Position numbers and translations under genes: made by a program. A stretch of DNA of 64,000 nt, taken from NCBI GenBank assembly GCA_964651395.1, contig CAZYXZ010000001.1, forward strand, positions 15,274-79,273. Direction: 5' to 3'. This DNA comes from an uncultured Frankiaceae bacterium (GTDB lineage: Bacteria > Actinomycetota > Actinomycetes > BP-191). Under the pieces are notes generated by a model. The model did no database searches and was not told where the DNA came from. It worked only from the letters and a program-made list of their open reading frames with translations. This document shows positions 36,153-51,642 of the stretch, in pieces; within the stretch, counting starts at the first letter, position 1, and each line of letters opens with the position of its first letter.

Positions 36153-36400
36153 CGGGCTCTCCCTCGGTCGGCGCCCTCGTTGCGGGCTACGTCGACTATC
36201 GGGTCGCGTCCGGGTGTCGTATCTCGCGAGATCTGGATTAGGCCGTGCTTGTGTTCAGATCCGATGAGGCAGCCATTGGCTGCCCAGTCTCACCGGATCT
36301 GATCGGATCCGACGCCGTGCCTCGCTTGGTCGCGAAAACAGCGGTTAGGGGAAGTCCGTCGGCCCAAAGCCGACCAGCTCATGCGGGCCGAACGGCAGAG

Positions 36401-36550
36401 CTACTTCTTCTTCCCGGACTTCTTGGCCGGCTCCCGCTGGCTGAGTGCGCTGCCGGCTGAGGTCTTTGACTTAGCTCCGGTCCGCTTGTCCTTGAGAACG
36501 TCGGACGCGGCGCTCGCGGCCTTCGGACTTGTTGTCTTCTTGCCTGGCAT
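36401..36550 (-). CDS. Small lysine-rich basic protein (49 aa), not in the supplied ORF track
   Basis: Minus-strand ORF 'MPGKKTTSPKAASAASDVLKDKRTGAKSKTSAGSALSQREPAKKSGKKK'. Preceded by a strong SD (AAGGAGG 5 nt upstream of ATG). Lys-rich despite 70% GC. Confidence 0.45.
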   Translation of the reverse strand: MPGKKTTSPKAASAASDVLKDKRTGAKSKTSAGSALSQREPAKKSGKKK

Positions 36551-36607
36551 GGGAAGCCTCCTTTGCCGCAGGTATGCCCTGGGGGTGCAAGGTCGACGCG
36601 CGCCGAT

Positions 36608-37936
36608 CTAGTGGCGCCGCCGCCGTAGCAGCTTGCGGACTAGCAGCAGGCGCCGAGGGGTGCGCGCTGGGGCGACTGCGGTCAGGTACACGTCAGTGAT
36701 AGCGCCCTCAGCGCGTCCGGGGGCCAGGGTGAGGGCCCTTCGATAGATGGGAGTGGGCTCGTCGTCCCATTCGTAGACGTCGAGCGTGAGTGTGTTGAGT
36801 CGGCGTGCGACGAGCGCGGCGATCGCGTAGGGGCATCGCAGGACGAGATGGACGTGGGTGCTGTGGTGTGCGCCGGCGAGCGCGCGGATGTGCTCGGCGA
36901 TCGCCGCCGCGAGTGGCGCCGCCTGCCGTGCGTCGAGCTCGGCGGGTGCGTAGGCGCTTCGCAGGTGCGACCAGGCGGCGAGTTCCGGCCGCAGGACCTC
37001 GATCAGTGCGGTGTACGCGGGGTCGCTGCTGCTGGGCAGGAGGTCGACGTAGGCCAGGACAGTCCGGCCAGTGTTGGTGCCGTGTCCGTGCCGAACGATG
37101 AGCTCCGGGTTCGGCGCTTCACCGCTGTCTGTCCAACTTGTGCTGGTTCGGTCGACGAGTTCGAGCGTGCCGACGAGGGTGCGCGGTAGGGCTGCGCCGA
37201 GTGCCGCAGCGATGCTGAGGTGCGCGCCGCCGGTGACGACGACGCGGCCGGCGGACGTCGCGCTCAGCGCGTTGTGGACGAGCGACGGCAGGTGGGCGAG
37301 CGCCTGCCGGAGATCCCGCAGCCCCGCGGGGGAGGGGAGGCGGCCGCTGGCGGCGGGTCGTATGCGCATGACGAGGTCGGCGGTGCTGGCAGCGGCGGCG
37401 GGTTGGATCCGGGTCTCGACGTCGAGGCGCAGGTGGCCTGCTGATCGGATACGGGCGGCGAGCGCGTTCAGTCTTCCTCGGGCGAGGTCGGCGGCCAGCT
37501 GGGCGCGTTCGCCGGGCGAGGCGATCGGTCCCTGCTTGAAGCGACTGGCGGTTCCCGACGGCTGGCCGAGCAGCCCGTCCGCGGCCGCGTGGTCGTATCC
37601 GTCGCCGGGCTTCGCCGGGTTCTTGTAGATCGTTGTGGCCATGGCGAGGGTGAACAGAGGCTGGGCTGCCGCCTCGATTAGTCGGGGTGCCTCGACGGTG
37701 CGGACGACCGTCGAGCGGGTGACTTCCGGCGTGAGCAGGATCAAGCCGGCGGAGATGCCTTCGGCGAGGGCATGGTCGAGCTCGTCCTCGGTGTCACCGG
37801 GTGGGAGATCCGTGGCGTCCTGCCAGACCGGGACGCCGGCGGTCCGGAGCGCCCAGGCGAGGTCGACGGCGAGGGCGCGCCCGTCGGATTGCCGGTAGGA
37901 CAGGAACAGCGGTCCCTCGGGGTCGATATCTGGCAC
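36608..37936 (-). CDS. TIR-domain effector with C-terminal sensor domain (TIR-SAVED-like CBASS effector)
   Basis: N-terminus 'PDIDPEGPLFLSYRQSDGRALAVDLAWALRTAGVPVWQD' is a TIR-domain signature. About 300 aa follow, consistent in size with a SAVED domain. GTG start preceded by AAGGAG. Confidence 0.6.
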   Translation of the reverse strand: MPDIDPEGPLFLSYRQSDGRALAVDLAWALRTAGVPVWQDATDLPPGDTEDELDHALAEGISAGLILLTPEVTRSTVVRTVEAPRLIEAAAQPLFTLAMATTIYKNPAKPGDGYDHAAADGLLGQPSGTASRFKQGPIASPGERAQLAADLARGRLNALAARIRSAGHLRLDVETRIQPAAAASTADLVMRIRPAASGRLPSPAGLRDLRQALAHLPSLVHNALSATSAGRVVVTGGAHLSIAAALGAALPRTLVGTLELVDRTSTSWTDSGEAPNPELIVRHGHGTNTGRTVLAYVDLLPSSSDPAYTALIEVLRPELAAWSHLRSAYAPAELDARQAAPLAAAIAEHIRALAGAHHSTHVHLVLRCPYAIAALVARRLNTLTLDVYEWDDEPTPIYRRALTLAPGRAEGAITDVYLTAVAPARTPRRLLLVRKLLRRRRH

Positions 37937-37944
37937 GTGGCTCC

Positions 37945-39267
37945 TTAGGGGCCGTTGGGGTCGCAGGTCGGGCAACCCGACTCGGGTGGGGCGGCGGCGG
38001 TCCAGGTGATTCCGCCGGCGCGCCAGTTCTCATCCGTCGCACCGTCGCCGCCGTAGGGGGCGGCGAGCAGGGTGTTGGGCTGCAGCGCGATGACGGCGAG
38101 GTCACCGGGGAGCACGGCGGCGTTGTCGCCGGCGGCTTGGAGGATGGTCGCGACGCTGACCTTGGCGGCGAGGCCGCCGACGAGATGCAGGTCGCCGCCG
38201 ACCGCGGTCATCGCCAGGTGGGTGAAGCCCTCGCCGTAAGGGCGGTCGAGGGTGGGCTCGGCGTCGAAGACGCCGTCGCGGACTTGCGCGCTGCGTTGGC
38301 AGGTGAGGCAGCCCTGATCCGGCCAGGGGCGCAGCCGGAGCACCTCGCCGATCCGCCCGGTGTCGAGGACGCAGCCCAGCACGGTGGTCAGGCCAGCGCG
38401 GCGCGCGAGGTGGTTGCTCACTCGCCGGGCGGCGACGCCGTCGGCGCAGCAAAGCACGAGGTCGGCATCGTCGAGTAGCGGGCGTACCTGGTCGGCGTCG
38501 GCGACGACGTCGAGGCGGTGCGGGTGAATCTCGGTGTCGGGTCGGTGCTCGCGGAGTTCTTCGGCGAGCGCGTCGACTTTGTGTCGGCCGACGTGCACGG
38601 CGCTGCTGGTGTGGCGGATCAGGTTGTGCCGGGCGAGCCGGTCCGGGTCGATGAGCAACAGCCGGCCGAGGCCGTAAGAGGCCAGCGCGTGCGCGGCGGC
38701 GCTGCCGATGCTGCCGGTGCCCACGAGCGCGATGGTGCGCGCCTGCAGTTCTGCGACCGGCCAGTGGCCGGTGAGCTGAACGATGCCAATGTGTGCAGGC
38801 TCTGTGAGGAGGTCGATGGGCTGGAGCTGTTCGTCGTTGAACATCCAGGCGGCGAACTCGGAGACGAGCTGCCACCCGTCTTCGTCTGGGATGTCCGGGG
38901 CGTAGGTGATCAGGATCGCCGGTTCGGGACCGAGCGCGGGCAGGTCGGGAAGCTGCTGGCGGACCGGGCCGGCTTTCAAGGCGATGTTGCGGAGTCGCGC
39001 GTGCAGGTGTTGGAGGTGCAGGTCGGCGTTGGCGCGTTCCCACCATCCGGTGCCACCGTTGACGTGCTGCAGATTGAGCCGGTGATTTTTTGGCGTGAGG
39101 GGGGTTGGGAATGTCTCCGGGGCGCTGACCTTGCCGATGCTGACACTGCCGACGGCGACCAGAGCATCGACGTCGCTCATCCGGAGCCCGAGTTCGCCGT
39201 GCCGGCCGCCGGTCTTGATTCGCTCCTGGGCGCTGAGGGGAAGCAGCACCGCGATCCGCTCAGGCAT
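37945..39267 (-). CDS. E1-like ubiquitin-activating (ThiF/MoeB-fold) enzyme, Cap2 E1-module-like
   Basis: 'IALVGTGSIGSAAAHALASYGLGRLLLIDPDRLARHNLIRH' (Rossmann GxGxxG plus DxD..NLxRQ-like). 'DLVLCCADGVAARRVSNHLARRAGLTTVLG'. C-terminal CxxC pairs. N-terminal about 160 aa uncharacterised. ATG overlaps the E2 gene stop by 8 nt. Confidence 0.7.
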   Translation of the reverse strand: MPERIAVLLPLSAQERIKTGGRHGELGLRMSDVDALVAVGSVSIGKVSAPETFPTPLTPKNHRLNLQHVNGGTGWWERANADLHLQHLHARLRNIALKAGPVRQQLPDLPALGPEPAILITYAPDIPDEDGWQLVSEFAAWMFNDEQLQPIDLLTEPAHIGIVQLTGHWPVAELQARTIALVGTGSIGSAAAHALASYGLGRLLLIDPDRLARHNLIRHTSSAVHVGRHKVDALAEELREHRPDTEIHPHRLDVVADADQVRPLLDDADLVLCCADGVAARRVSNHLARRAGLTTVLGCVLDTGRIGEVLRLRPWPDQGCLTCQRSAQVRDGVFDAEPTLDRPYGEGFTHLAMTAVGGDLHLVGGLAAKVSVATILQAAGDNAAVLPGDLAVIALQPNTLLAAPYGGDGATDENWRAGGITWTAAAPPESGCPTCDPNGP

Positions 39268-39745
39268 CGTCGGCGGTGGTGTCGTCGGTCGGTACGTTTG
39301 CGTCGTTCTCGTCGGCGAGGAGTTGGGCAGCCTGGGGAACGAGATGGTCGTGCACGGGGTCGCTGACGATCCCAGCCTCGGTCATCTGCTCGATCAGGCC
39401 GAGCTTCATCAGCGCGTACTCGACTCGCCACGCGCAGGCCTTCAGTAGCAGCTCGAGGATGCTGTCTTTCGGTTGCCAGTCGACGGCCGCCTGCAGTAGG
39501 CACAGCCCCCCGTCGGGCAGGACATGCCACTTGTGGTCGGTGCGCACGTGCAGCGACGGTTCCGGGTCGAGGGGATAGATCGTGGGGTAGTGCGCGGGGT
39601 AGGCGGGGCCCGGGATCACGTCGGCGACCAAGCCGCGTGGCACGACTATTGCAAGGCCGTCCGGGGCCGACCGGTCGAACGGCCACACCGGGAGCTCGCC
39701 CCGCCATGAGCCGCCGTTCGCCTCGGTCCAACTCAGCCCGGGCAT
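39260..39745 (-). CDS. E2-like ubiquitin-conjugating (UBC-fold) protein, Cap2 E2-module-like
   Basis: From 'MPGLSWTEANGG...'; 'HKWHVLPDGGLCLLQ' matches the E2 HPN-like loop with catalytic Cys. The ORF's upstream extension (R/P/S-rich) is treated as non-coding. Confidence 0.6.
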   Translation of the reverse strand: MPGLSWTEANGGSWRGELPVWPFDRSAPDGLAIVVPRGLVADVIPGPAYPAHYPTIYPLDPEPSLHVRTDHKWHVLPDGGLCLLQAAVDWQPKDSILELLLKACAWRVEYALMKLGLIEQMTEAGIVSDPVHDHLVPQAAQLLADENDANVPTDDTTADDA

Positions 39746-39827
39746 CCGCGCTGCGAGGGCGGTGAGATCAGCGGCATGTCGGCGTGGTTCTGCCTCCCAC
39801 CAAGGCTGGGGTGCCCGCGACTGCCGA

Positions 39828-40052
39828 TCACCCACCGGGGTTGTCACGGAGGCGATGAGCCCGGTCCGTGGTCGCCGCCGCGGCAGTGCTGCCGGCGGCT
39901 CCGGTGTGCAGCGCGGGTGCTTCGACGGGCACGGGGAACTGCTCGCCGAAGACTTCCCGCCACGCGCGCATCGCGCGTCCCTCATCGCCGGCCCGCGCAG
40001 CCGCACACGCGCGCGCGGCGTTGTCCGCGGCGCTCTGGAGCGCAGCGCGAAG
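39828..40052 (-). pseudogene. Displaced 3' segment of the CD-NTase ORF (76 codons ending -NPGG) separated from its gene by the IS3 insertion
   Basis: Reading on the minus strand from the TSD copy at 40050-40052 in the cdn frame gives an open 75-codon frame '...RAALQSAADNAARACAAARAGDEGRAMRAWREVFGEQFPVPVEAPALHTGAAGSTAAAATTDRAHRLRDNPGG*'. The stop is 80 bp upstream of the E2 start. Confidence 0.45.
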
Positions 40053-40079
40053 TGAACCGCCCCAGGTTCTCTGCCGCTC

Positions 40080-41063
40080 TCATACGGGTTGCGGCTCTCG
40101 GTTGAGAGTCGCGTAGTGGGCGGCCTCGTACTCGCTCGGGGTGAGGTAGTCGAGGCTACTGTGCAGCCGCCGGTTGTTGTACCAGTCGACCCAGCCGGCG
40201 GTGGCCCACTCGACGTCGGTGATGCTGCGGTAGGGCCCGGCGTGGAAGACCGTGGTGCGGATGCACTCGGTCTTGAACAGCCCGATCACGCACTCCATGA
40301 GCGCGTTGTCGTATGCGTCGCCGACGCTGCCGATCGACGGGCGGATGCCTTCGAGGTCGAGGTGCTCGGTGAACGTGATCGACGTGTACTGACTGCCCGC
40401 GTCCGCGTGACCGATCAGCTCGCCGGGCTGGAACGGGTGCCCTTCGCGCTCGCGCTGCCAGGTCGCCATCCGCAGCGGCGTCATCACCAGCTCGACGTCC
40501 TTGGACGTGGCGGCGTGCCAGGCCACGATCCGCTGCGCGAACACGTCGAGGATGAACGCGACGTAGACGAACCCGACCCAGGTCCGGACGTAGGTGAAGT
40601 CCATCACCCAGGTGCGGTTCGGCTCGGTCGCGGTGAAGTCCCGGTCGAGCAGGTCGCCGGCGCGCTTGCCGTCCTTGCCCGGGATGGTCGTGCGCACACC
40701 CTTGGCACGGCGGATGCCGTTGAGCCCCAGCGTTCTCATCGCCCGGTCGACCGAGCCCGGCGTCGCCGCCGGCAGCGAGCGGCGCACCAATCGCAGCATC
40801 TTGCGTCGCCCATAGAGACCTTCCGGGGCCAGCCGGCGGACCCCGGCCAGCTCGCCCACGACATCGACGGTCCAGGCCAGGTCACGCACCCGATCAGTGA
40901 CCTGCGCGTCGGTGACGGTGCGCGCCGCGACCAGCTGGTCGGGCTGCCTCCATGCCCGGTAGGTCCGTGCGGCGATCTGACAGCCCTGCTCGGACAGGAC
41001 CCGGCAGACCGACTCGACCGCAAGACCAGCGGCACGGCAGTCGTCGACGAACGCGACGATCAA
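40080..41063 (-). CDS. IS3-family transposase OrfB (DDE integrase core)
   Basis: 327 aa; 'TWVMDFTYVRTW...', 'HADAGSQYTS', 'GSVGDAYDNALMECVIGLFKTE' are the DDE motifs of IS3-family rve integrases. Confidence 0.85.
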   Translation of the reverse strand: MIVAFVDDCRAAGLAVESVCRVLSEQGCQIAARTYRAWRQPDQLVAARTVTDAQVTDRVRDLAWTVDVVGELAGVRRLAPEGLYGRRKMLRLVRRSLPAATPGSVDRAMRTLGLNGIRRAKGVRTTIPGKDGKRAGDLLDRDFTATEPNRTWVMDFTYVRTWVGFVYVAFILDVFAQRIVAWHAATSKDVELVMTPLRMATWQREREGHPFQPGELIGHADAGSQYTSITFTEHLDLEGIRPSIGSVGDAYDNALMECVIGLFKTECIRTTVFHAGPYRSITDVEWATAGWVDWYNNRRLHSSLDYLTPSEYEAAHYATLNREPQPV

Positions 41064-41371
41064 GAGCTGCGGGGGTCGAGCTCCCCCGCGAAGAAAATCG
41101 ACGCCCGGCGCAGGATCTCGTTGTCCTCCTCGAGCCGACGGACCTTGCCCTTCAGCTCCCGGATCTGCTCGAGCTCCTCGCTCGTCGCACCACGACGCTC
41201 GCCACGGTCGACCTGCGCCTGCAGAAACCAGCGCCGCACCGACTCCTGCCCGACGCCGTTACGTCGAGCGACCGCCTCGGCCGCGGCCGTCGGCGTCGGG
41301 TACTCGTGCACGTGCTCAAGCATCTGCTGGACGCAGCGTTCCTTCACCTTCGGATCGATCTTCTTCGGCAT
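41060..41371 (-). CDS. IS3-family transposase OrfA (HTH)
   Basis: 103 aa 'MPKKIDPKVKERCVQQMLEHV...SVRRWFLQAQ...LEEDNEILRRASIFFAGELD'. Leucine-zipper/HTH OrfA; overlaps orfB. Confidence 0.8.
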   Translation of the reverse strand: MPKKIDPKVKERCVQQMLEHVHEYPTPTAAAEAVARRNGVGQESVRRWFLQAQVDRGERRGATSEELEQIRELKGKVRRLEEDNEILRRASIFFAGELDPRSS

Positions 41372-41421
41372 GAACCCGTCCTCCTGGACTCACAAGGAGG
41401 CGGCATCAAACCTGGGGCGCT

Positions 41422-42192
41422 TCAAAGTGCCGACACGTCCAGGTCGGGCTGGATCGGTCCGCACAGCTTCGCCGGGTCGAGCACGGGGGAGTTGATGCGG
41501 TCGACGGCGCGCTGGAAAAACCCGGCCAAGGCTGTGGGCCGATCTGGGGCTTCGAGCAGGCAGTCAAGGGCGAGCACTTCCACGAGCAGCGACTTCACCT
41601 CGGTGGGCTGAAGCCGCGCCCAATACTTCAGCAACCGCACAAGGGGCACGAATAGCGCCCACTGCTCACTGACTAGCGTGATGAGCACCTGCGGGTTGGT
41701 AGCGATCCACTGCTGCGTCTTGTGTTCGGGTACCCACAGGCCGCCGGCGGCGCGGGGCAGCGCTGGCATCGCGTCGACCGTGAAGTCGTAGTCGCGGAGC
41801 CGGTCGCGGAAGTGGCAGCGGACCGCGTGGTTGCGAGGTTCGGCTCGGAGTAGCTCCTTTCCGACGGTCCCGTTCTCTACGCCGAGCAGGCGCATGGCGT
41901 GGGTCGCGATGAACGCGAGGGCGTCGTCAACGCCGACGGGACTCCCGGGCTGCGCCCAGTCGGGGAAGTGTTTCGGGTCCAGCTTGATCACTGTGTCGAC
42001 GTCATGGATGGGGTCGATGTGGGTGCGCCGCGCCAGTGAGCCGCTGCAGAAGACGTCCAGGACCTCGGTGATCGTGCAGTAGGCGTCGTCGAACAGATCG
42101 CGACGGCGGCGAGCTTCCTTCAGGTCCGCTGGATCGGTGTTGACGACCTGCTGGAACTCGTCGAACGCGTCGTCGAGCGTGCGCTTGCTCAT
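41422..42192 (-). CDS. cGAS/DncV-like nucleotidyltransferase (CD-NTase, SMODS-type), 3'-truncated by the IS3 insertion
   Basis: 'FCSGSLARRTHIDPIHDVDTVIKL' (GS-x11-DxD NTase motif) and downstream 'YDFTVDAMPAL' (third acidic residue). The stop codon is supplied by the IS terminal TTCA. Upstream GGAG SD. Confidence 0.6.
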   Translation of the reverse strand: MSKRTLDDAFDEFQQVVNTDPADLKEARRRRDLFDDAYCTITEVLDVFCSGSLARRTHIDPIHDVDTVIKLDPKHFPDWAQPGSPVGVDDALAFIATHAMRLLGVENGTVGKELLRAEPRNHAVRCHFRDRLRDYDFTVDAMPALPRAAGGLWVPEHKTQQWIATNPQVLITLVSEQWALFVPLVRLLKYWARLQPTEVKSLLVEVLALDCLLEAPDRPTALAGFFQRAVDRINSPVLDPAKLCGPIQPDLDVSAL

Positions 42193-42206
42193 GAGCAGCT
42201 CCAATG

Positions 42207-42519: not shown

Positions 42520-42954
42520 CTAACTGCTGTCCGCGGCGCCTGCATCTTGAAGCCGGTCGCGGGCGCGGAGACGACGTTCGGTCTCGATCTGGCCCTGGAA
42601 GTGGAAGATCGCGTTGGCGAACTGGATCAGGAAGTCGGCCTGGCGTACTGGTGTTGCGGCGGATCGGTACAGCTCCCACAGTTCGAAGAGGTTGTCCAGC
42701 CGGCGCGAGCGCTCCTCGTCGGAGTCGAGGTCGGCGACGTCGTCGAGGAACTCCTGGTCGACCGACTCCGGATCGCTTGCTGCTTGTGGCTCGGGGCCGC
42801 CTACAGACGTCGTGCTGTTAGGCGGCTCTGCGACGAGCGGGAGCGCGGACACGTCTGGGGCGATCGGCCGCGCGAGGTTGGCTAACGCCTTGTCCAGCAT
42901 CAGCTGCGGGATCGGGCCGTTCTGACGTTCCCAGTCGTCGAGCCAGAGGCGCAT
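42520..42954 (-). CDS. Hypothetical acidic protein (island-borne)
   Basis: 144-aa ORF with protein-like, acidic composition. Between the Tn7-like module and the CBASS operon. Confidence 0.35.
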   Translation of the reverse strand: MRLWLDDWERQNGPIPQLMLDKALANLARPIAPDVSALPLVAEPPNSTTSVGGPEPQAASDPESVDQEFLDDVADLDSDEERSRRLDNLFELWELYRSAATPVRQADFLIQFANAIFHFQGQIETERRLRARDRLQDAGAADSS

Positions 42955-43336
42955 CGCGCGGAGGCGGCGCCGGCGACCTCATGAGCGCCGCTGGGTCATG
43001 TCCGCGGCCCGGATTGGGGGCCTTGGGCGGCATGCAGTTCCTGGTGGCGACCACGTTGGTCGTTGTGCGCTCCGTGACGATGCCTGGCCGTTCGATCTGG
43101 ATTTCCAGGCGCATCGGTGAGCCGATGCGGATGTCGTCGATGGCGAGGATGGGGATCTCGCGGTGGTCCGCGCGGAGCGCGGCGGGAACGACCCCGGGGC
43201 CGCCGGGGCCGGTGTCGGGTACTCGCAGTGCGGTACGGCGGTCGAGCAGGTAGGTGCTGCTCTCGGTGGTGATCTGCCATCGTCCAGTACGCAGGCGGTG
43301 CACCATGTTGATGGCTGTGGGGGCGTTCCCGGTCAT
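42818..43336 (-). CDS. Hypothetical protein translationally coupled to tniQ (C-terminus uncertain)
   Basis: ATG overlaps the tniQ stop (ATGA). First about 120 aa protein-like; the C-terminal R/P/A-rich tail overlaps the next ORF. Possible frameshift or shorter gene. Confidence 0.35.
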   Translation of the reverse strand: MTGNAPTAINMVHRLRTGRWQITTESSTYLLDRRTALRVPDTGPGGPGVVPAALRADHREIPILAIDDIRIGSPMRLEIQIERPGIVTERTTTNVVATRNCMPPKAPNPGRGHDPAALMRSPAPPPRDAPLARRLGTSERPDPAADAGQGVSQPRAADRPRRVRAPARRRAA

Positions 43337-44328
43337 GGGTGCGGACCGTAGGGGTCCGGTGTGACAGAACGTGCCTGCCGGTCGATGGCTGGTGCTGCAA
43401 AGTGCCCGTGGGCGCTATACAACGCAGCATCGGGACGGCCGGTGGGGGCGGTCGCGATGCCGTGCCATGGATCGGCGAGCCATCTGAAGGCCCGGGGATG
43501 CCGCGCCGCCGGGTGGTGGTGGATGCCCAGGCGGATGGCGAGGCGCTGGCTGAGCAGGGTGGTCTGCTCGCCGTGCGCCGCTCGCCGCGCCGGTTCAGCG
43601 GCGAGCTCGGCAGTCAACTCGACATGCTCTGGGAAGGTGACCGCGTTCGGGATTTGATGCTGCGGCTCGGGTCGAAAGCCGAACGCGCTGAGGTGTGCTT
43701 CCCGGGCTCGCCAGCGCGGGGCCAGCGGCCCGTACGTGCCGTCGGGACCGCGCCAGTCACTGAGGAGCGCGCCGGCGAGCGCGAACGCATGTGCCAGGGA
43801 CTGCGGGTGCTGCTGCCAGGTCAGGTCGAGGGTGCGTTGCGCCGCGACGAGCCAACGCGCGGGTGCTCGTTGTGGTCGCGGGCCCGCCAGCCACAGACCG
43901 TGGCTCGCGCAGTGGATGCGCGGCGGCACGGCCCATCGTGCCGGGTGGGCACCGGCGCGACGGCGTTGGCAGTCCGGACACACACGTGCACCCAGCGGGC
44001 TGTGCTGTGACTTCCAGTGCAGGTGCAGCCGCGATCCGGCGGGCGGTGTCTGGGACAGCGCGGGCAGGGCCCTGCGGAGTTGGGTTGGTGGGTGGCCACT
44101 GAGCACGGCAAGCGCCGCCCGCCGCTCCGGGTCGAGGGTGATGTCGTCCGCAGGGGACCAGTAGGTCCGACGCCGACTGGCCGGCTCGATAACGGCGAGG
44201 AGGGTGCGCAGCGTGAGGTGATGCGCATCGGCGAGGCGGTGGACGTAGGACAGCACGGTCTCGGCGGCTTGTGGCCGCACATGGCGGGGGAGCGGGCGCG
44301 CATCGCGCGCCGGTCGGTGGGGTGGCAT
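43333..44328 (-). CDS. tniQ: TniQ-family transposition target-selection protein
   Basis: 'ETVLSYVHRLADAHHLTLRTLL' plus a zinc-ribbon-like 'CPDCQRRR...HCASHGLW' are typical of TniQ/TnsD N-terminal domains. Confidence 0.7.
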   Translation of the reverse strand: MPPHRPARDARPLPRHVRPQAAETVLSYVHRLADAHHLTLRTLLAVIEPASRRRTYWSPADDITLDPERRAALAVLSGHPPTQLRRALPALSQTPPAGSRLHLHWKSQHSPLGARVCPDCQRRRAGAHPARWAVPPRIHCASHGLWLAGPRPQRAPARWLVAAQRTLDLTWQQHPQSLAHAFALAGALLSDWRGPDGTYGPLAPRWRAREAHLSAFGFRPEPQHQIPNAVTFPEHVELTAELAAEPARRAAHGEQTTLLSQRLAIRLGIHHHPAARHPRAFRWLADPWHGIATAPTGRPDAALYSAHGHFAAPAIDRQARSVTPDPYGPHP

Positions 44329-44332
44329 GCGC

Positions 44333-45343
44333 TCAGCGGTCGGTGCCTGTGCCGACCAGCGGGAGCCGGGAGGCGGCGGTGGTGTCGCTGCTCGCTTCAG
44401 CGAGGCCATCGCAGTCGAGCGCGTCGAGGCTGGCCCGGGTGATCGTTTCGGTGCCGTCGTCGATGGCGGCGATGGCGGCTTCACTGATCAGGTCGCTGAG
44501 GCTGCCGATGCGCCCAGCGCTGCGGGCGTGCAGGTAGGGAGCGAGCCGGCGCAGCGTGCCGGGCTTGTGCTTGTAGAGGCGAAGCGCGTCTTCCAAGTCG
44601 CCGACGAGCGCGTCCCAGAGGGCCCGGTCGTCGGCGGTGCCGTAGCGGAACGGGGTGAGGGTGACCGATCGGAATCGGCCGAGGATCTGTTCGCCGCGGG
44701 TTCCGCGCAGCAGGCCGCTTCGGTCGAGCCGGATGCCGGCGATGACGACGGTGATGCCGGTGCGTTCGGTGAGGTATTTGATCTGGTCGGAGGCTTCGGC
44801 GCCGCGGGCGGTGCCGAAGTTGAGGTTGTGGATCTCGTCGAGCAGCCACAGTTGCGTGTTGAGCGTGCGCATGTTCGCGACGACGATGTTCATCAGGTCG
44901 ACGCGGTTGCCGACCAGGTCGAGGTTGAAGAAGCGGGCGACCTCGCTGATGAACATGCGGGCGTTCGCGCCCGGCGGGACGAGGGTGTAGCCGACCGGGA
45001 TGTCTTCGTCTGCGCGTGGTGTGCGCTTGCGGTAGGCGAGCTCGAAGGAGCGGCCGGCGGCGAGCAACGCTTCGGTCTTGCCGGTGCGTGCCTCGCCGCT
45101 GACGAGCAGTCCGCGGCCGCGCCGGTCCAGTGCGCGCAGCCGTCTGGTCTGGTGCACGACCTGGCGGAGCCCAGGCGTGGCGATGACGACGTTGCGCTGG
45201 TGGTAGGCCCGACGCTCTTCGTCATCGTCCCGGCGGGCCTTCCCGCGCGTCCGTCCCCAGACCCGAGGGTCGAGCAGTGTCGGTGGTGCAGGTGCTTCGA
45301 GCTCGTCGCGCCACTGCTCATAGGTCGTCGGCGCTGGACGCAT
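44333..45343 (-). CDS. TnsC/TniB-family AAA+ ATPase transposition regulator
   Basis: Walker A 'SGEARTGKTEAL', Walker B 'LWLLDEIHNL'. Genes ordered tnsB-tnsC-tniQ. Confidence 0.7.
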   Translation of the reverse strand: MRPAPTTYEQWRDELEAPAPPTLLDPRVWGRTRGKARRDDDEERRAYHQRNVVIATPGLRQVVHQTRRLRALDRRGRGLLVSGEARTGKTEALLAAGRSFELAYRKRTPRADEDIPVGYTLVPPGANARMFISEVARFFNLDLVGNRVDLMNIVVANMRTLNTQLWLLDEIHNLNFGTARGAEASDQIKYLTERTGITVVIAGIRLDRSGLLRGTRGEQILGRFRSVTLTPFRYGTADDRALWDALVGDLEDALRLYKHKPGTLRRLAPYLHARSAGRIGSLSDLISEAAIAAIDDGTETITRASLDALDCDGLAEASSDTTAASRLPLVGTGTDR

Positions 45344-47409
45344 CAGTTCGCTCCGTCGTGCGGGTCGAACACGCCGAGACTCCTGCGTGGTCCTGTTGCT
45401 TCCCGCTGCGGGTCGACGTCGTAGCCGTCGATGCCCGCCTCAGGGAGCGGCACTGAGTGCAACCGGCTGTTCTGCCGGAGCCGTTTGCGAGCGGCTGTGC
45501 GCCGGGCAACATTGCCCGGGCCGCGTGGAGGTCCGGCTTGGACCCGATCGAGGAGGTCGCGGGCGTGCTTGGCGATCTCCTCTTGGCGGACTGGGTCGTC
45601 GCCGTCGCGGGTGAGGCGGACAGCTTGGCTCCAGATGGCGTCGCTGAAGGGGCGGTCGGCCCAGGCGCGCAGTGTCCAGGGCACGGCAATCCACTGCTCG
45701 GATTGGTCGGCGATTCGGTGGTCGCGCAGCCAGATGTGGTTGATGTCGAGTGGGTCGTGGTGGATCTCCCACTGCTGGCGGCGACCGGGCAGGCCGGATG
45801 GTTGGTCGTAGTAGGGCCGCAGCGCGGCGCTGTCGTAGATGCGGTGGTCGAGCTGGATGCCGTAGTGGTTGACGGTGCGCCAGACAGCGGGCATCAGCTC
45901 GATGTAGTCGGTCGGGCCGAGCGGCACGGGCACGTAGCCGTCGCGGGCGAGCAGCGCGGCGGCCATCTCGTTCGGGCTTAGCTGAATCTTGCTGTTCAGG
46001 GGATGCCGGAGTTTGGCGTGCTTGCGGGTCTGCCAGACGCTGACGACGAACTCGTCGAGCAGCTCCTGCAGCTCGGCCAGAGTCCAGAGCCGCTTCGGTC
46101 GCTTGTGACCGCGCTGCTGGGCGTTGCGCCCGACGTAGCCCTTGATGTGCTGCAGGAACAGGCTGTCGAAGGATCCGAAGCTGCGTTCGACGAAGGGCTT
46201 GCTGGTCGGGCGCTGCACCTGGGCCGGCGCGAAGCTGATGCCGACGTGCTCGCAGATGCGCAGGTGGGAGTCGGCGAACGCGATCTTGGCGCGATCCCAG
46301 ATCAGCGTGTCGATCATCACGACTGGTCGGGCTGCCGCGTCTTCGAGTCGTTGGTCGATGCTGATCAGCCGCTCGTAGGGCAGGGCGGAGTGCTGGAGCG
46401 CGAGGAACTCCGGCCAGCCTGGGCGCATCCGCTCCGGGACGAGGCCGCGGGCGAGCAGCAGGCCAGAGTCCACAGCGCTCGGGTCACCTGCATGCAACGT
46501 GGCGGCGAGGACACTGCGGCTCGCCGGATGCTTGAGCGTGAGCAGGTGTGGCCGGCCGACCACGCCGGGGGAGAGGATGGCTTCCACGTTGAGCACGGTC
46601 GCGTCGGCCTCGACTTCTCCGGGCGCGTAGGTGTCGCGTGGCTGGTAGGGCTGATCGGGGCGCAGTGCCGCGCTCTCGCGGGCCTTGGCACTGTCGAAAG
46701 TGTGCCGACCGCGGTCGGCCTCGTGCATCCGCCGATAGACGGTGGCCTTGCTGGGCATCGGGAAGTCCGGGCCGTGGCGTTCGCGGAGCAGCCGCTCGAC
46801 GCGCACCCGAAGCCGGCCCCGCTCGCCGGTGGACTCACCGATCTCACGGTCCATGCACTCGGTGATGGCAGCCATGAGCTCGGCGTCGCCGCGCTGACGT
46901 TGCGGTTGGGGCGCGAGTCGCCGGTCGACTAGCGCCCAGAGGCCTTCTTGCTGGTAGTCGCGGCAGTAGCGGCGCAGCGTGCCCAAGGCGATCGGGCTGG
47001 TGCTGTTGGCCGTCTGCGCGACCTTGCGTTGCTGCCGGTCGAACAGTGACGTGCTCGCCGGGTCGAACTGCGGGTCGGCCGGCAGGCCAGTGCGGGCTTC
47101 CCCGTAGAGGACCTCGCGGACATGCCGCTCGAGCGCACGAGCCGCGGTGACGATGTCTGTGCGCAACCCGTCCAAGCGTGCGTCGGCCGGCACGCGGGGT
47201 CGCTGCGAGTCGAGCAGCTCGAACGTCGGATCGGCAAGCAGGTCGCCGGCGAGAGTGGTGAGGACCTCACCGTCGTTGCCGAGCAGCGTCACCGTCGTGG
47301 TTCCGCCCGGTCGCAGCTCCCGCAGGGTGCTGAGAGCGCGCACGGAGTATGTGCGCTCAGCAAGGCGCAGCACCGCACCGATGCGCAGCATCGGCCGCCC
47401 GCCCGTCAT
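45343..47409 (-). CDS. TnsB/TniA-family (Mu-type DDE) transposase
   Basis: About 690 aa; 'VVMIDTLIWDRAKIAF...', 'HIKGYVGRN', a C-terminal region typical of the rve/Mu-transposase family. ATG overlaps the tnsA-like stop (ATGA). Confidence 0.75.
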   Translation of the reverse strand: MTGGRPMLRIGAVLRLAERTYSVRALSTLRELRPGGTTTVTLLGNDGEVLTTLAGDLLADPTFELLDSQRPRVPADARLDGLRTDIVTAARALERHVREVLYGEARTGLPADPQFDPASTSLFDRQQRKVAQTANSTSPIALGTLRRYCRDYQQEGLWALVDRRLAPQPQRQRGDAELMAAITECMDREIGESTGERGRLRVRVERLLRERHGPDFPMPSKATVYRRMHEADRGRHTFDSAKARESAALRPDQPYQPRDTYAPGEVEADATVLNVEAILSPGVVGRPHLLTLKHPASRSVLAATLHAGDPSAVDSGLLLARGLVPERMRPGWPEFLALQHSALPYERLISIDQRLEDAAARPVVMIDTLIWDRAKIAFADSHLRICEHVGISFAPAQVQRPTSKPFVERSFGSFDSLFLQHIKGYVGRNAQQRGHKRPKRLWTLAELQELLDEFVVSVWQTRKHAKLRHPLNSKIQLSPNEMAAALLARDGYVPVPLGPTDYIELMPAVWRTVNHYGIQLDHRIYDSAALRPYYDQPSGLPGRRQQWEIHHDPLDINHIWLRDHRIADQSEQWIAVPWTLRAWADRPFSDAIWSQAVRLTRDGDDPVRQEEIAKHARDLLDRVQAGPPRGPGNVARRTAARKRLRQNSRLHSVPLPEAGIDGYDVDPQREATGPRRSLGVFDPHDGAN

Positions 47410-48182
47410 GTCTCGCCTCCGGCGCGCACAAGGCTGTCCGATCGCATGGGCCGGTCCAGGTCGAGGCGCAGCCGACCGGCCCACAGCTCGTGGTAGAGCG
47501 CGGGGAGAACTCTCAGGGGGTCGCCGAAGAGCTCAGCGCCGGCGCGCAGGCCGAGCGGTTCGGCGAAGACGACGGCAAGCTGCGTGGCCAGCTCAGCGTT
47601 GCGGCAACGCGGGTGTCGGTACGCGGCGATGAATCGCAGGTTGCTGCGGTAGGGCTCAACCAATGGCCCCAGCACGCGGTAGCCCCATCCGAGCTGCGCG
47701 CACATTCGTGCAGTGGCCGTGAACGTCGTGGCGGCTGCGGTGTCGATCTGCGCCGGGTGTCGGCAGTCGACGAGGAGCCTGCTGGCGTCGGCGCGTATCA
47801 GCAGCGCGTCGGGCACATGCATCCGGTCCGACCAGACCAGCTGCATCGGCTGGCTGACGAGGGCGACAGTGTGCGGGTCAAAGTCGGCCTGCTGGAACCG
47901 GTCCCGTTCGAGTCCGGACTCGTATGTCCAGTACCGCCGTTCGGTCGCCGACCAGTACTGGCCCGACCGGGCCAAGCCCCGCCCGAGCTTGAGCACATCA
48001 CGCACCGGTTGCATCCCGGGCAGCGGCAGCGCGCCGAGGTCATCCGCGGCTAACCGGATCGGCTCGCCGTCCGCGGCCACGTAGCGCACCTGCGGCAGGT
48101 CGCGGCCCGACAGGTGAGCTGGACGTGCGGGCCGGCGTGGCGCAGCAGCGCGGAGGGTCCCCCCCGGCGCAAGCGTCCGCAT
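47406..48182 (-). CDS. TnsA-like endonuclease (Tn7-type transposition protein)
   Basis: From 'MRTLAPGG...'; 'YWTYESGLERDRFQQADFDPHTVALVSQPMQLVW...HVPDALLIRADASRLLVDCRHP' follows the TnsA catalytic-core pattern (ES..E...D..QP...PD). The last acidic/basic pair is divergent. Confidence 0.5.
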   Translation of the reverse strand: MRTLAPGGTLRAAAPRRPARPAHLSGRDLPQVRYVAADGEPIRLAADDLGALPLPGMQPVRDVLKLGRGLARSGQYWSATERRYWTYESGLERDRFQQADFDPHTVALVSQPMQLVWSDRMHVPDALLIRADASRLLVDCRHPAQIDTAAATTFTATARMCAQLGWGYRVLGPLVEPYRSNLRFIAAYRHPRCRNAELATQLAVVFAEPLGLRAGAELFGDPLRVLPALYHELWAGRLRLDLDRPMRSDSLVRAGGET

Positions 48183-48383
48183 CGACACCTCCGGGGGGAA
48201 GCAGCTGCACCTCCGGGAACTACGGAGAGTGACGAACTGCACGGGGCGTGCTGACCTCGCAACGGTACGGCTGGGAGGGGGATTCGGACAAATCGACCAG
48301 GAGGCGGACCTAGAGTGGGATGGACCTCGAGCATCGGCAGGTGACGTGTGAGCCGGACCACGGACCAGCCCGATCCGCTTGTG

Positions 48384-48731
48384 GCGCGCTATGTCGCGGA
48401 GATCGTCACCGCCATCGAGGCCGCGCGCGGCGGACGATCGCTTCGGCAGTTCGCCCAAATGTGTGGGGTGAGCGCCTCGACCTTGTCCGCGGTGATCCGT
48501 GGCCGGCGCTTCCCAGATCTGCAGACCGTCGTGCTGGTCGAGGCCGCTACCGGGATCGAGATCTGGCCGTTTGACCGCATTCGGGCCGCCGAGTTCGCGG
48601 CCTCGCGGATGCGGGTCGCAGAGTCACGCGTACGGCCCCGTGCGCAGTTAGGCCAACAGATCAGTTCCGCAGGCCGCACTCATAGGCCAGCCAGCCGGAC
48701 TCCCGGGGCCAGTCGCTGCGATCGAGGGTGA
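48384..48731 (+). CDS. XRE-family helix-turn-helix protein
   Basis: 'SLRQFAQMCGVSASTLSAVIRGRRFPDLQTVVLVEAATGIEIWPF' is an HTH_XRE-like motif. Divergent from the tnsA-like gene. C-terminal extent uncertain. Confidence 0.45.
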   Translation, partial: ARYVAEIVTAIEAARGGRSLRQFAQMCGVSASTLSAVIRGRRFPDLQTVVLVEAATGIEIWPFDRIRAAEFAASRMRVAESRVRPRAQLGQQISSAGRTHRPASRTPGASRCDRG

Positions 48732-49494
48732 CCCTCAGCCGGCGAGCGTGCGCGGTGAGCCCACGGCGGATCGCCCTTTCGATGCCGACGACATCCGGCC
48801 GGTCGTCCAGGTAGTCGCCCTGGCCCCAAACCACCCTGATCTGAGTGAGCAGTACGACCTCGGGATAGACCCACGGCTCGACGTTCCCGGCCCGCCATGC
48901 CGGCCAGTCGGCTTGATCGCAGCGTGCTGCCCAGATCCGCGCGAGGTACGGAAGCTCCAGGCTTCGCCAGGAATAGGCGACACCGATCGCCCCCCGTAGC
49001 TGCTCGAGGAAGCCGCGGTGGCCGCGGCTGCGGGCGAACATCCGGTCGAGACGGGTCTGCGCTCCAGTCAGTTCCGTGCTGCGCACCGGGGTCTTCTCGC
49101 CGACCACCTGCTCGTGCTCGGTGCAGTAGAGGAAGGGCGCGTGTGCCCACCGGGCGAGTCGCGCGCCGTCGTCACGGAGGCAGGCGGTACACCGGTACGG
49201 AACGGTGATCAGGCCGCTCTCTCGGCGCATCGTCATGCGCGGTCGCGATTCGTCGCGCAGCCATAGCGGGGGTTGGGTGACCCAGTCGCGGTAGGTGAGG
49301 GCCGGCATCGCGGAACGCAACAAGCCGACCGGTAGGCCGGACAGCGCCGATAGCTTCTCCTCGAGAGGCCCATGCGCGATCACATCCCGTGCCCGCTCCG
49401 TCGACGCGGGCAGCGCCAGCGGCAAGGCGCGCACCGGGAGGTGGTGCGCGTCGGCGAGGCGGCCCAGCCAGCTCAGCACCGTCTCGCCCGGCAC
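48661..49494 (-). CDS. TniQ-family protein (second copy)
   Basis: 'ETVLSWLGRLADAHHLPVRAL' plus zinc ribbon 'YRCTACLRDDGARLARWAHAPFLYCTEHEQ'. GTG start. Confidence 0.6.
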   Translation of the reverse strand: MPGETVLSWLGRLADAHHLPVRALPLALPASTERARDVIAHGPLEEKLSALSGLPVGLLRSAMPALTYRDWVTQPPLWLRDESRPRMTMRRESGLITVPYRCTACLRDDGARLARWAHAPFLYCTEHEQVVGEKTPVRSTELTGAQTRLDRMFARSRGHRGFLEQLRGAIGVAYSWRSLELPYLARIWAARCDQADWPAWRAGNVEPWVYPEVVLLTQIRVVWGQGDYLDDRPDVVGIERAIRRGLTAHARRLRVTLDRSDWPRESGWLAYECGLRN

Positions 49495-49538
49495 GGGGGG
49501 AACGCGGCGGGGGAGAGTCCGTGGCGACGGGTCCCAGT

Positions 49539-50483
49539 TCAGGACAGCCCCGCCTCGGCGGCGATCTGGTGGATCTCCGGGTAGCCGCGATAGCTCATCA
49601 GCGGCGACGGCGCGAGCCAGGCGAGCAGCTCACGGGTACATAGCGGCGCGTCCCGAGCCAAGTTGAGCCGGCGGCACATGATGTGCTGCAGGTCGGCGGC
49701 GAAGTGCAGCCAGTGATGACGCGCCTCGTGGTAGCCATCCGCGGTCGCGAGGTCATGGCGCAGAAGCGCCGTGGCAACCATGACGGCTTCGGGGAGCTGA
49801 AACGGCCGCACCGTCCAGCCGGTCGTCGGCCAGTCCTGGCTTGCCCGCCGTTGCTGCCAGGCCTGCTCGACCAGCGCCGGCCACCCCGGCGCGTCGCGAC
49901 CCGGGTGCCGCCAGCCACTGAACATCCGCAGGGTGCGCTTCCACGCGGACTCAGCAGCCGCAGCCGGGAAGACCCGCCACAGCCCAGACAGCTCAGCCTG
50001 TGCGCGGCGAACAGCCCCCGAACGCAAGGTGATGCCGGCGGCGTCGGTGAGCAGTAGCTGGTGTGCCGCGCAGTACAACTGCGGGCCGAGCCAACGTCGC
50101 GATGGCGCGGCGCCGCCGCGTCTGCGCGAGCAGCGCAGGCAGTATCCCGGCCAGGCACTGTCGTCGAGACCGCTGTCGTAGGACGCCGCTTCTCTGCCGT
50201 CAGGCAGCAGCGCGCGGTCGGCCGCACCTGGCAACGCGGCGGCCAGACGTCGCGTGGTTGTGCCGGCCATACAGGCGAGGTGGGCGCGGCCCGGGCGAGT
50301 GAGCCACAGATCGGTCGGCACCCAGTGGCCGGTGGCGCTCGGCGGGCCAGTGCCGAGCATGCGGGCCACGTGGTCGTCCAGGAGGTGGTTGGCTTGAGCG
50401 AGGCGACGAACGTAGGAGCCGGCGCCCTCACCGCCCACCGGCCGCACTGTTCGGGGGAGTGGTCGCAGCGGTTGGTCCGGCAT
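49539..50483 (-). CDS. TniQ-family protein (third copy)
   Basis: From 'MPDQPLRP...'; 'GEGAGSYVRRLAQANHLLDDHVARMLG' plus 'WPGYCLRCSRRRGG...LYCAAHQL'. Confidence 0.6.
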   Translation of the reverse strand: MPDQPLRPLPRTVRPVGGEGAGSYVRRLAQANHLLDDHVARMLGTGPPSATGHWVPTDLWLTRPGRAHLACMAGTTTRRLAAALPGAADRALLPDGREAASYDSGLDDSAWPGYCLRCSRRRGGAAPSRRWLGPQLYCAAHQLLLTDAAGITLRSGAVRRAQAELSGLWRVFPAAAAESAWKRTLRMFSGWRHPGRDAPGWPALVEQAWQQRRASQDWPTTGWTVRPFQLPEAVMVATALLRHDLATADGYHEARHHWLHFAADLQHIMCRRLNLARDAPLCTRELLAWLAPSPLMSYRGYPEIHQIAAEAGLS

Positions 50484-50613
50484 GGGCAACCCTGAGCGCT
50501 GACGGCGTTGTGTTGGCCCTTTCCCCAGGCTCCAGGATGCGAACCCCGAGCACGCCGGCGGACCGTTCAGGTGGCGCCAGCCGGACGGGAGACACGACCG
50601 GTGTTGCAGGCTC

Positions 50614-50874
50614 CTATCGCCGACCAGGCGGAATCGGTGACGCGTCCACCGCGGGTGTGATTCCGGGTGAGGGAAGCAGCCCGTGGTCGCGCCATTGCCG
50701 GACGATCTCGTCACGCTTCTGCTCGGCGTACCAGGTCAGGCCTGTGGTGATCACACCCGGAGGGAGCAGCAGAACCACGATCAGCAGGAGCCGCCCGCGC
50801 AGCCGCTGCCAGCGGCGCGACCAGTCGAAGTCGATGACCTCCAGGACCAGTTCAATGAACACGCTCCGCAGCAT
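50614..50874 (-). CDS. Small hypothetical membrane protein
   Basis: 86-aa ORF with one hydrophobic segment 'LLLIVVLLLPPGVITTGL'. Weak support. Confidence 0.25.
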   Translation of the reverse strand: MLRSVFIELVLEVIDFDWSRRWQRLRGRLLLIVVLLLPPGVITTGLTWYAEQKRDEIVRQWRDHGLLPSPGITPAVDASPIPPGRR

Positions 50875-50928: not shown

Positions 50929-51642
50929 TCAAATCTCGACGCGGTCGATGGGGAGGTCGGGTGGTTCGCCGAGGAACTCGATCCAGGCCCTCTTGACGCA
51001 GGGGTAGTGGGTGGAGGCCTCGACGAGGTCCAGGAACTTGGCGATGGTGTCGCTGAAGCGTGCTCTGAGCCGTTCGTCGACGAGCTCGCCGGTGTCGTCG
51101 AACGCGGTACTAGCCTGGGCGAGCGAGAACATGTCGGGGTAGATGCGGGCACCGAGATGTTCGAGTGGGACTCGTAGTGACCACAGGCCGCGGTTGCCTC
51201 CCACCATCGACGGTGATGCGGAGAGCAGGAGGCCGTGTTGCTCGTTGAAGGGCTGGGGGCTGGCGCGGGAGACCCAGTCGATGACGTTCTTCAGCGCACC
51301 GGGCATCGACGCGTTGTACTCCGGCGACACGATGACGACGCCATCGGATGCGGTCAGTCGTTTGCGCAGGGCGTGCGCCCCGGGTGGCATGCCGTCGGCA
51401 GACTCGACATCACCGTTGTAGGACGGTGCGTCGAAGTCCCGCATTGATGCGAAGTCGACGCTCGCACCGTTGCGCTCGACTGCAGTGGCGACGAGCCGTG
51501 CTAGCCGAGTGTTGAGCGACCCGGCGCGCAGGGACGCGGAGAACACCAGGATCCTCAGCGGCTCGCGGTCGGGGACGGTCCCGGCATCGCTCCGACGCTT
51601 CTCTGCCGTGCTCTGCGCCGGTGATGCCGTGGCTGGCCCCAT
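50929..51642 (-). CDS. NAD(P)H-dependent FMN reductase
   Basis: 'LRILVFSASLRAGSLNTRLARL...VVIVSPEYNASMPGALKNVIDW' is the typical NADPH-dependent FMN reductase fold. Confidence 0.75.
   Translation of the reverse strand: MGPATASPAQSTAEKRRSDAGTVPDREPLRILVFSASLRAGSLNTRLARLVATAVERNGASVDFASMRDFDAPSYNGDVESADGMPPGAHALRKRLTASDGVVIVSPEYNASMPGALKNVIDWVSRASPQPFNEQHGLLLSASPSMVGGNRGLWSLRVPLEHLGARIYPDMFSLAQASTAFDDTGELVDERLRARFSDTIAKFLDLVEASTHYPCVKRAWIEFLGEPPDLPIDRVEI

Follow-up and report, generated by a model that had tools for sequence, protein, structure and literature searches.

A putative actinobacterial Tn7-like transposon with three TniQ paralogues, next to an IS3-disrupted CBASS operon

A 64,000-nucleotide stretch of contig CAZYXZ010000001.1 (forward-strand positions 15,274 to 79,273; GenBank assembly GCA_964651395.1) from an uncultured Frankiaceae bacterium, hereafter the window, with positions counted from its first letter and a G+C content of ~70%, encodes what is, judged from its genes and domain matches, a Tn7-like transposon of the heteromeric TnsA/TnsB type that belongs to the actinobacterial clade TnsA_like_Actin. 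Its core genes tnsA-tnsB-tnsC are accompanied by three target selectors of the TniQ family: one in the canonical place after tnsC and two on the tnsA-proximal side, next to a gene for an XRE-family regulator with a helix-turn-helix (HTH) domain. This layout is atypical, a variation on a known theme. On balance, we lean towards a single element whose right end lies at ~50594, outside tniQ3, so that tniQ3, tniQ2, and the XRE gene are inside that end. A type II CBASS (an antiphage signaling system based on cyclic oligonucleotides) lies beyond the other side of the module, and all genes of the tns/CBASS region are on the minus strand except the divergent XRE gene (48348-48731, plus strand). Tn7-like elements are studied for their choice of targets and as a basis of programmable insertion tools; to our knowledge, no member of the actinobacterial clade has been characterized experimentally.

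Core genes and the three TniQ paralogues

An original prediction, made from the letters alone, had proposed a co-directional tnsA-tnsB-tnsC-tniQ core, and its genes were all recovered at the coordinates given for them, on the minus strand, with domain matches and with overlapping or abutting junctions; the start of tnsA is corrected here to 48182. tnsB (45343-47409) encodes a Mu-type DDE transposase of 688 amino acids (aa) with Mu-transpos_C and HTH_32 domains, in which D269, D372, and E408, spaced by 103 and 36 residues, are invariant among 15 homologues; its nearest homologues among 5.8 billion proteins are ~40% identical. tnsC (44333-45343; 336 aa) encodes a TniB-type AAA+ regulator (PF05621, 1.5e-14; AAA_22) with a Walker A motif reading GEARTGKT and a Walker B motif reading LLDE. 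The junctions, read from the sequence, are operon-like from tnsA to tniQ1: tnsA and tnsB overlap by ATGA, tnsB and tnsC by TGATG, and tnsC is separated from tniQ1 by a 4-nt gap, with a further ATGA overlap between tniQ1 and the next small open reading frame (ORF). The five core ORFs are full-length and retain catalytic residues and coupled junctions, and the genes are thus not the degenerate remnants that had been named as a way for the prediction to fail.

The identity of the tnsA-like gene (47406-48182; 258 aa) decides whether the module could instead be a tniA-tniB-tniQ element of the Tn5053/Tn402 type, which lacks a TnsA endonuclease. In favor of that alternative, the protein has no Pfam match, and a single-sequence AlphaFold model (mean pLDDT confidence score, 34.5) was unusable and was not used. 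Against it, the protein scores 204 bits (cut-off, 110) with NCBIfam NF033179 (TnsA_like_Actin, “TnsA-like heteromeric transposase endonuclease subunit”), its relatives carry PF08722, and a profile of the family weakly matches Protein Data Bank chains containing TnsA (E values of 4e-4 and 0.65). Solved structures searched with the TnsA sequence alone gave no TnsA match. In an alignment with five relatives, its putative catalytic motif YESGLE...VPD...VDCR matches the E...PD...DxR/DVR signature of the family, the third motif being the K-to-R form. No resolvase domain was found in any ORF of the island by domain searches, unlike in Tn5053/Tn402 elements, whose order is tniA-tniB-tniQ-tniR and which have a resolvase (TniR) with a res site. 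We regard the tnsA-like protein as a true TnsA homologue and the Tn5053/Tn402 alternative as effectively refuted. Elsewhere in the family, the TnsA of a Streptomyces relative (L085, 9204-10004) has all of its E, PD, and DxR positions replaced, with Endonuclease_7 genes on the flanks; it recalls the nuclease-dead TnsA reportedly found in telomeric Streptomyces elements.

The three selectors are tniQ1 (43333-44328; 331 aa; PF06527, 5e-12), in the canonical place after tnsC, tniQ2 (48661-49494; 277 aa from a GTG; PF06527, 1e-11), and tniQ3 (49539-50483; 314 aa; PF06527, 1e-05), the outermost, whose score of 26.7 bits is just below the cut-off of 27. The presence of two further TniQ genes upstream of tnsA, beyond a divergent XRE gene, thus agrees with what had been predicted. 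The XRE gene (HTH_3, 1e-07) is divergent from tnsA across a 165-bp spacer (48183-48347) and convergent with tniQ2. All three TniQs have an N-terminal LPR.V.P..GE...S...RLA motif and an invariant zinc-ribbon CxxC...CxxH; the ribbon had been correctly attributed to the two upstream ones, but tniQ3 reads GEGAGSYVRRLAQANHL where the earlier description had ETVLS. With pairwise identities of just 26-36%, they are old paralogues, and each scores lower against the TniQs of six more distant relatives than against the other two. All are short (~300 aa), without a long C-terminal DNA-binding extension.

To place this layout, the module was compared with about 90 relatives (six genome or assembly loci plus 80 metagenome loci) with TnsB proteins 37-44% identical to that of the window. 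All of them have tnsA-tnsB-tnsC followed by one tniQ, and none has a tniQ upstream of tnsA except in tandem pairs of elements (L098, L143, and L160). Because relatives carry one tniQ after tnsC, the arrangement in the window is atypical, as had been suggested.

The upstream block has its own relatives. An exhaustive HMMER search of 1.84 billion representative proteins returned 26 relatives of TniQ3 at E values of ≤0.001, the best external match being P0036 (33% identical) on L086, a 3.8-kb grassland metagenome contig. There, the TniQ3-like gene is followed by a convergent XRE gene whose product is 61-64% identical to the window XRE. The next match, P0037, on another contig from the same sample (L167), is TniQ1-like (38% identical to tniQ1; E value of 5e-42); it follows a TnsC that is 56% identical to the window TnsC and precedes a homologue of the small ORF that follows tniQ1 in the window. 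By sequence similarity, then, the nearest relative holds the same modules, and the pairing of TniQ with XRE is conserved. Word-index searches with the TniQ profile and with XRE returned almost nothing, and scanning metagenomes with the XRE pair gave no match.

An XRE gene beside tnsA in Streptomyces was considered as evidence that XRE genes belong to these elements and was rejected, as it is a conserved host flank common to two different elements; the window XRE is not orthologous to that host XRE (E value of about 0.002). The two Streptomyces genomes concerned (L083, 9040-9340; L084, 2550-2830 and 8860-9380) hold different family elements at the same site, ~100 bp upstream of the conserved host XRE gene and beside the palindrome TTGCAAGCACGTGCTTGCAA. 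Two elements are in tandem in L084, the first with a split tnsB. The tniQ ORFs of three metagenome relatives have a generic HTH at their N terminus (L162, 5816-6967; L163, 8498-9649; and L142, 4464-6896), with weak matches to HTH_23, HTH_3, and Sigma70_r4_2 and 39% identity over 46 aa to the window XRE; these ORFs may be natural HTH-TniQ fusions.

The small ORF joined to tniQ1 by ATGA (42818-43336, minus strand) has a conserved part at ~42979-43285; on L167, the ORF behind the TniQ1-like gene (2260-2694) matches its residues 18-119 at 45% identity. The window ORF had no match in Pfam, NCBIfam, or PADLOC, and may be an unrecognized accessory gene of the sub-lineage; its C-terminal third resembles out-of-frame read-through. 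A hypothetical acidic protein of 144 aa follows (42520-42954, minus strand), an ORF backed by its third-codon-position G+C; it likewise had no Pfam, NCBIfam, or PADLOC match.

Candidate ends and the CBASS operon

The putative right end (50484-50594, minus strand) is tentatively placed by a terminal 5'-TGTCTC at 50594-50589, which lies 111 bp upstream of the tniQ3 ATG and 20 bp past the stop of an 86-aa ORF. An alignment of the L083 and L084 junctions shows conserved host flank running up to a common TGTCTC ~100 bp from the host XRE gene. The same hexamer begins the right ends of L001, L002, L085, and the second L084 element (6/6 of the ends first examined), and a recurring right-end form reads TG plus TCTCRTTN5TGAGGCAG, twice. 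Across the family, TGTCTC was found upstream of tnsA in 21/55 loci versus 9/55 on the control strand. The hexamer is rare in the window, with eight copies when both strands are counted; between XRE and tnsA there is none, and TGTCCG alone occurs there (48290, 108 bp upstream of the tnsA ATG). When every TGT-started 32-mer was globally aligned to the right end and to the alternative site at 48290, none rose above background; the 48290 site had neither an inverted-repeat partner nor a matching duplication. The best hit of the repeat searches, an 18-bp perfect inverted match between 30084-30101, inside a histidine-kinase ORF, and 50545-50562, in the putative right end (BLAST E value of 0.009), does not extend and was judged to be chance.

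The opposite end is at most suggested. A weak candidate (36215-36321, plus strand) with family-like motifs is located in the 455-bp spacer to the left of the TIR-SAVED gene: a TGT at 36215 is followed by TCTCGCGAG, and a TGT at 36250 is followed 15 nt on by a perfect TGAGGCAG, which forms the core of sites in this family and has only three copies in the window; the motif TCAGATCCGRTG then recurs twice, once inverted and once as a degenerate third copy. The arrangement resembles the left end of the second L084 element, and we treat 36215-36321 as a suggestive candidate only. The same spacer contains a 48-nt near-perfect hairpin at 36255-36302 (TCAGATCCGATGAGGCAGCC...GGCTGCCCAG..CCGGATCTGA) and, on the minus strand at 36403-36552, an unannotated 49-aa lysine-rich ORF that has a strong ribosome-binding site, AAAGGAGG.

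The CBASS operon downstream of tniQ1 is real, as the original prediction had it, although its status as cargo is not established by it, the ends being unfixed. It comprises a CD-NTase gene in two parts (5' part, 41425-42204, SMODS; 3' part, 39830-40052), an E2-like gene (39260-39835; PADLOC E2 model, 220 bits), an E1 gene of ThiF-like, Cap2 type (37945-39267; ThiF; PADLOC E1-E2 model, 482 bits), and a TIR-SAVED effector gene (36608-37975; TIR_2 and SAVED; PADLOC TIR effector, 391 bits), all on the minus strand. E2 and E1 are separate overlapping genes with no Cap2 fusion, and the ORFs scanned showed no JAB (Cap3) gene. An IS3-family element of 1372 bp (40053-41424), missed in the earlier description, splits the cyclase gene; it has orfA (41060-41371; HTH_Tnp_1), orfB (40080-41063; rve/rve_3), 25-bp inverted repeats (TGAAC.../...GTTCA, 84% complementary), and a 3-bp CTT target duplication (40050-40052 and 41425-41427); orfA, orfB, the TG...CA repeats, and the duplication together place it in IS3. 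The cyclase frame continues across the excised element, and its removal in silico restores a CD-NTase ORF of ~329-333 aa that scores 356 bits against the PADLOC cyclase model. With CD-NTase restored, the operon has the E1/E2 pair and cyclic-nucleotide-sensing effector of a type II CBASS; as it stands, with the reading frame interrupted, the system is probably inactive at present.

Beyond the 86-aa ORF (50614-50874), which adjoins the putative right end and has no family match, lies an FMN-reductase gene (50929-51642) whose best relatives, 81% and 79% identical, come from Acidimicrobiia and Microthrixaceae metagenome-assembled genomes. No homologue of the 86-aa ORF was found in 80 FMN-reductase loci. 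As none of these loci has flanking genes in common with the window, the host lineage is poorly sampled. Proteins looked up exactly (the five tns/tniQ proteins, CBASS E1, and XRE) are each singletons at 90% identity, and the record for the seven comes down to one NCBI contig, with XRE also on a Logan contig of 1,108 bp; further context is not on record. The exact XRE match suggests that some public sequencing run may contain this element or a near-identical one. Neither a tRNA nor an Rfam RNA was found in the window, and no promoter or terminator came out of a scan of 48.0-50.95 kb.

One element, two, or an immobilized island

A single element is favored over a composite of two on the strength of the TGTCTC at 50594-50589 and of the TniQ3-like/XRE pair conserved in the nearest relative; of the original suggestion of several specificities or a composite, the three genuine paralogues stand and the composite is the less favored. 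Several results nevertheless weigh against a single, bounded element. The TGTCTC hexamer was sought after the fact and is present at only 21/55 right ends, with 9/55 in the control. L086 and L167 are separate contigs, so that we infer, rather than observe, that they belong to one element. The Tn7-type terminal repeats predicted for both flanks did not materialize: no 20- to 22-bp repeated sites common to the two were found, inverted and direct repeats, shared 12-mers, and ungapped alignments against shuffles yielded no related end pair above noise, and blastn-short of 20-43 kb versus 47-64 kb with a clustered 14-mer test returned noise only. Position weight matrices built from relatives' ends and 20-bp sites were non-discriminating in a window of such high G+C. 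The predicted 5-bp target duplication was likewise absent for the candidate ends examined, the right flank reading CGACC versus CCGGG (36210-36214) or GTGCT (36245-36249) on the left, and no CGACC followed by TGT occurs in 30-43 kb. The proposed comparison with an empty site was attempted through relatives of the FMN reductase (≤81% identical; 80 loci among 185,579 species genomes), none of which had synteny with the window, and no empty site was found. A CBASS (patatin/CD-NTase/E2) adjoins the family element in L001 (2244-4777), where it is outside the right end (TGTCTC at 7807), and adjacency to a CBASS is therefore no proof of cargo. Lastly, the conserved LPRRVPP of tniQ2 lies upstream of its first ATG, GTG, or TTG (49488-49550, minus strand); the sole near-cognate start, CTG at 49542, shares bases with the stop codon of tniQ3 (cCTGA) and would give 293 aa, an arrangement that suggests either coupled re-initiation or the recent loss of a canonical start.

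These points bear differently on the two remaining alternatives. Under the first, possible but on the whole improbable, a complete element, made up of tnsABC-tniQ1 and passengers, would end on the right within the 165 bp between XRE and tnsA. A second, related element would lie between it and the attachment site, with tniQ3-tniQ2, with or without XRE, as its remnant or non-autonomous partner. Tandem arrays are common in the family (L084, L098, L143, and L160), the divergent XRE gene beside tnsA in Streptomyces relatives belongs to the host flank and starts ~100 bp from the right end, a TGTCCG lies 108 bp before the tnsA ATG, and 50594 is joined to no left end by an end pair or a target duplication. 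Yet the 48290 site lacks TGTCTC, an inverted-repeat partner, and a matching duplication; a left end plus a right end will not fit in 165 bp; a remnant would require precise loss of tnsABC that left tniQ3 111 bp from a right-end terminus; and the window XRE is no orthologue of the Streptomyces host gene, resembling instead the XRE that follows the TniQ3-like gene on L086. The second alternative, which we consider unlikely, is an immobilized fossil: the left end would have been lost or scrambled, leaving a fixed chromosomal island with CBASS as a mere neighboring defense locus. It would account for the missing related left end and duplication, the lost canonical start of tniQ2, the CBASS probably already inactivated by IS3, and the singleton status of the looked-up proteins, by which no recent spread is visible. 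It sits poorly with the five intact core ORFs, with their catalytic residues and coupled junctions, with the clean 3-bp duplication of the IS3, by which a deletion was not caused by that insertion, and with the family-like site motifs in the left intergenic region; moreover, family ends are short and divergent, such that a missed detection is weak evidence. For the favored single element, with no fixed left end, duplication, or empty site, the 14.5-kb size and the CBASS as cargo remain inference, if plausible.

On the single-element reading, the transposon would run leftward from ~50594 through tniQ3-tniQ2-XRE-tnsABC-tniQ1, probably to a left end at ~36.2-36.3 kb, and would carry the IS3-disrupted type II CBASS as a passenger. 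Going by what is established for Tn7, TnsB and TnsA would cut both strands at each end and TnsC would bridge the transposase to a target-bound TniQ. Each TniQ, with its common N-terminal region and zinc ribbon and its different C-terminal half, would then direct TnsC, and with it TnsA and TnsB, to a different DNA target, giving up to three insertion pathways as in described dual tniQ/tnsD elements, and XRE would control the divergent tnsA promoter. A bolder and quite doubtful proposal, to which we give little weight, is that tniQ3-tniQ2-XRE forms a dedicated targeting module within the right end of an undescribed sub-lineage of Tn7-like elements, with XRE acting as a DNA-reading partner of short TniQs and not only as a repressor. 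It draws on the conserved TniQ/XRE pairing, the possible HTH-TniQ fusions (L142, L162, and L163), and the Streptomyces insertions beside a host XRE operator.

Relation to known systems and meaning for the family

Actinobacterial Tn7-like elements constitute clade 2 of Benler et al. 2021 (PMC8649781), and TnsA_like_Actin (NF033179) elements have been surveyed in Streptomyces (bioRxiv 10.1101/2024.11.13.623437). The window shares with them the tnsA-like/tnsB/tnsC/tniQ order, coupled junctions, E...PD...DxR, ~300-aa TniQ, and, tentatively, the TGTCTC terminus; it differs in its two extra TniQs and XRE between the putative right end and tnsA, in the conserved small ORF after tniQ1, and in its host, which is probably a member of Acidimicrobiia and not Streptomyces or Nocardia. 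About one in four Tn7-like loci has tandem tniQ/tnsD duals (Faure et al. 2023, PMC10293859), which follow tnsC (1,048 loci), and multiple TniQs serve alternative pathways (PMC9881144). Like those elements and like Tn7 itself (TnsD plus TnsE), the window has several selectors on one TnsABC, presumably for alternative insertion pathways; unlike dual tniQ/tnsD loci, it has three, two of them at the tnsA-proximal end beyond a divergent regulator gene. Tn6022 and LoPAST each combine a short TniQ with the separate DNA-binding partner that it depends on, TnsF in the former and TnsP in the latter. The window likewise pairs short TniQs with a small conserved DNA-binding protein encoded beside a TniQ, but its XRE, of the HTH_3 family, has no relation to either TnsF or TnsP and is linked to TniQ only by gene neighborhood and by the possible HTH-TniQ fusion in distant relatives. 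CBASS is documented Tn7-like cargo, recorded in 216 Tn7-like elements (PMC8649781). As with Tn7-borne type II CBASS, the window has CD-NTase, E2, E1, and TIR-SAVED on the cargo side of tniQ1; it departs from them in its IS3-split cyclase gene, its separate E2 and E1, and its lack of a visible JAB gene.

For annotation, finding a tniQ gene ahead of tnsA does not by itself imply a second element, and a CBASS beside tns genes is not to be called cargo, or functional, without mapped ends. Were XRE a partner of the TniQs, the element would gain extra, possibly switchable, insertion specificities. Three short TniQs on one TnsABC, two of them beside a conserved HTH protein at the right end, would make a compact natural case for multi-target steering, and the element could be used to ask whether small DNA-binding partners supply target specificity.

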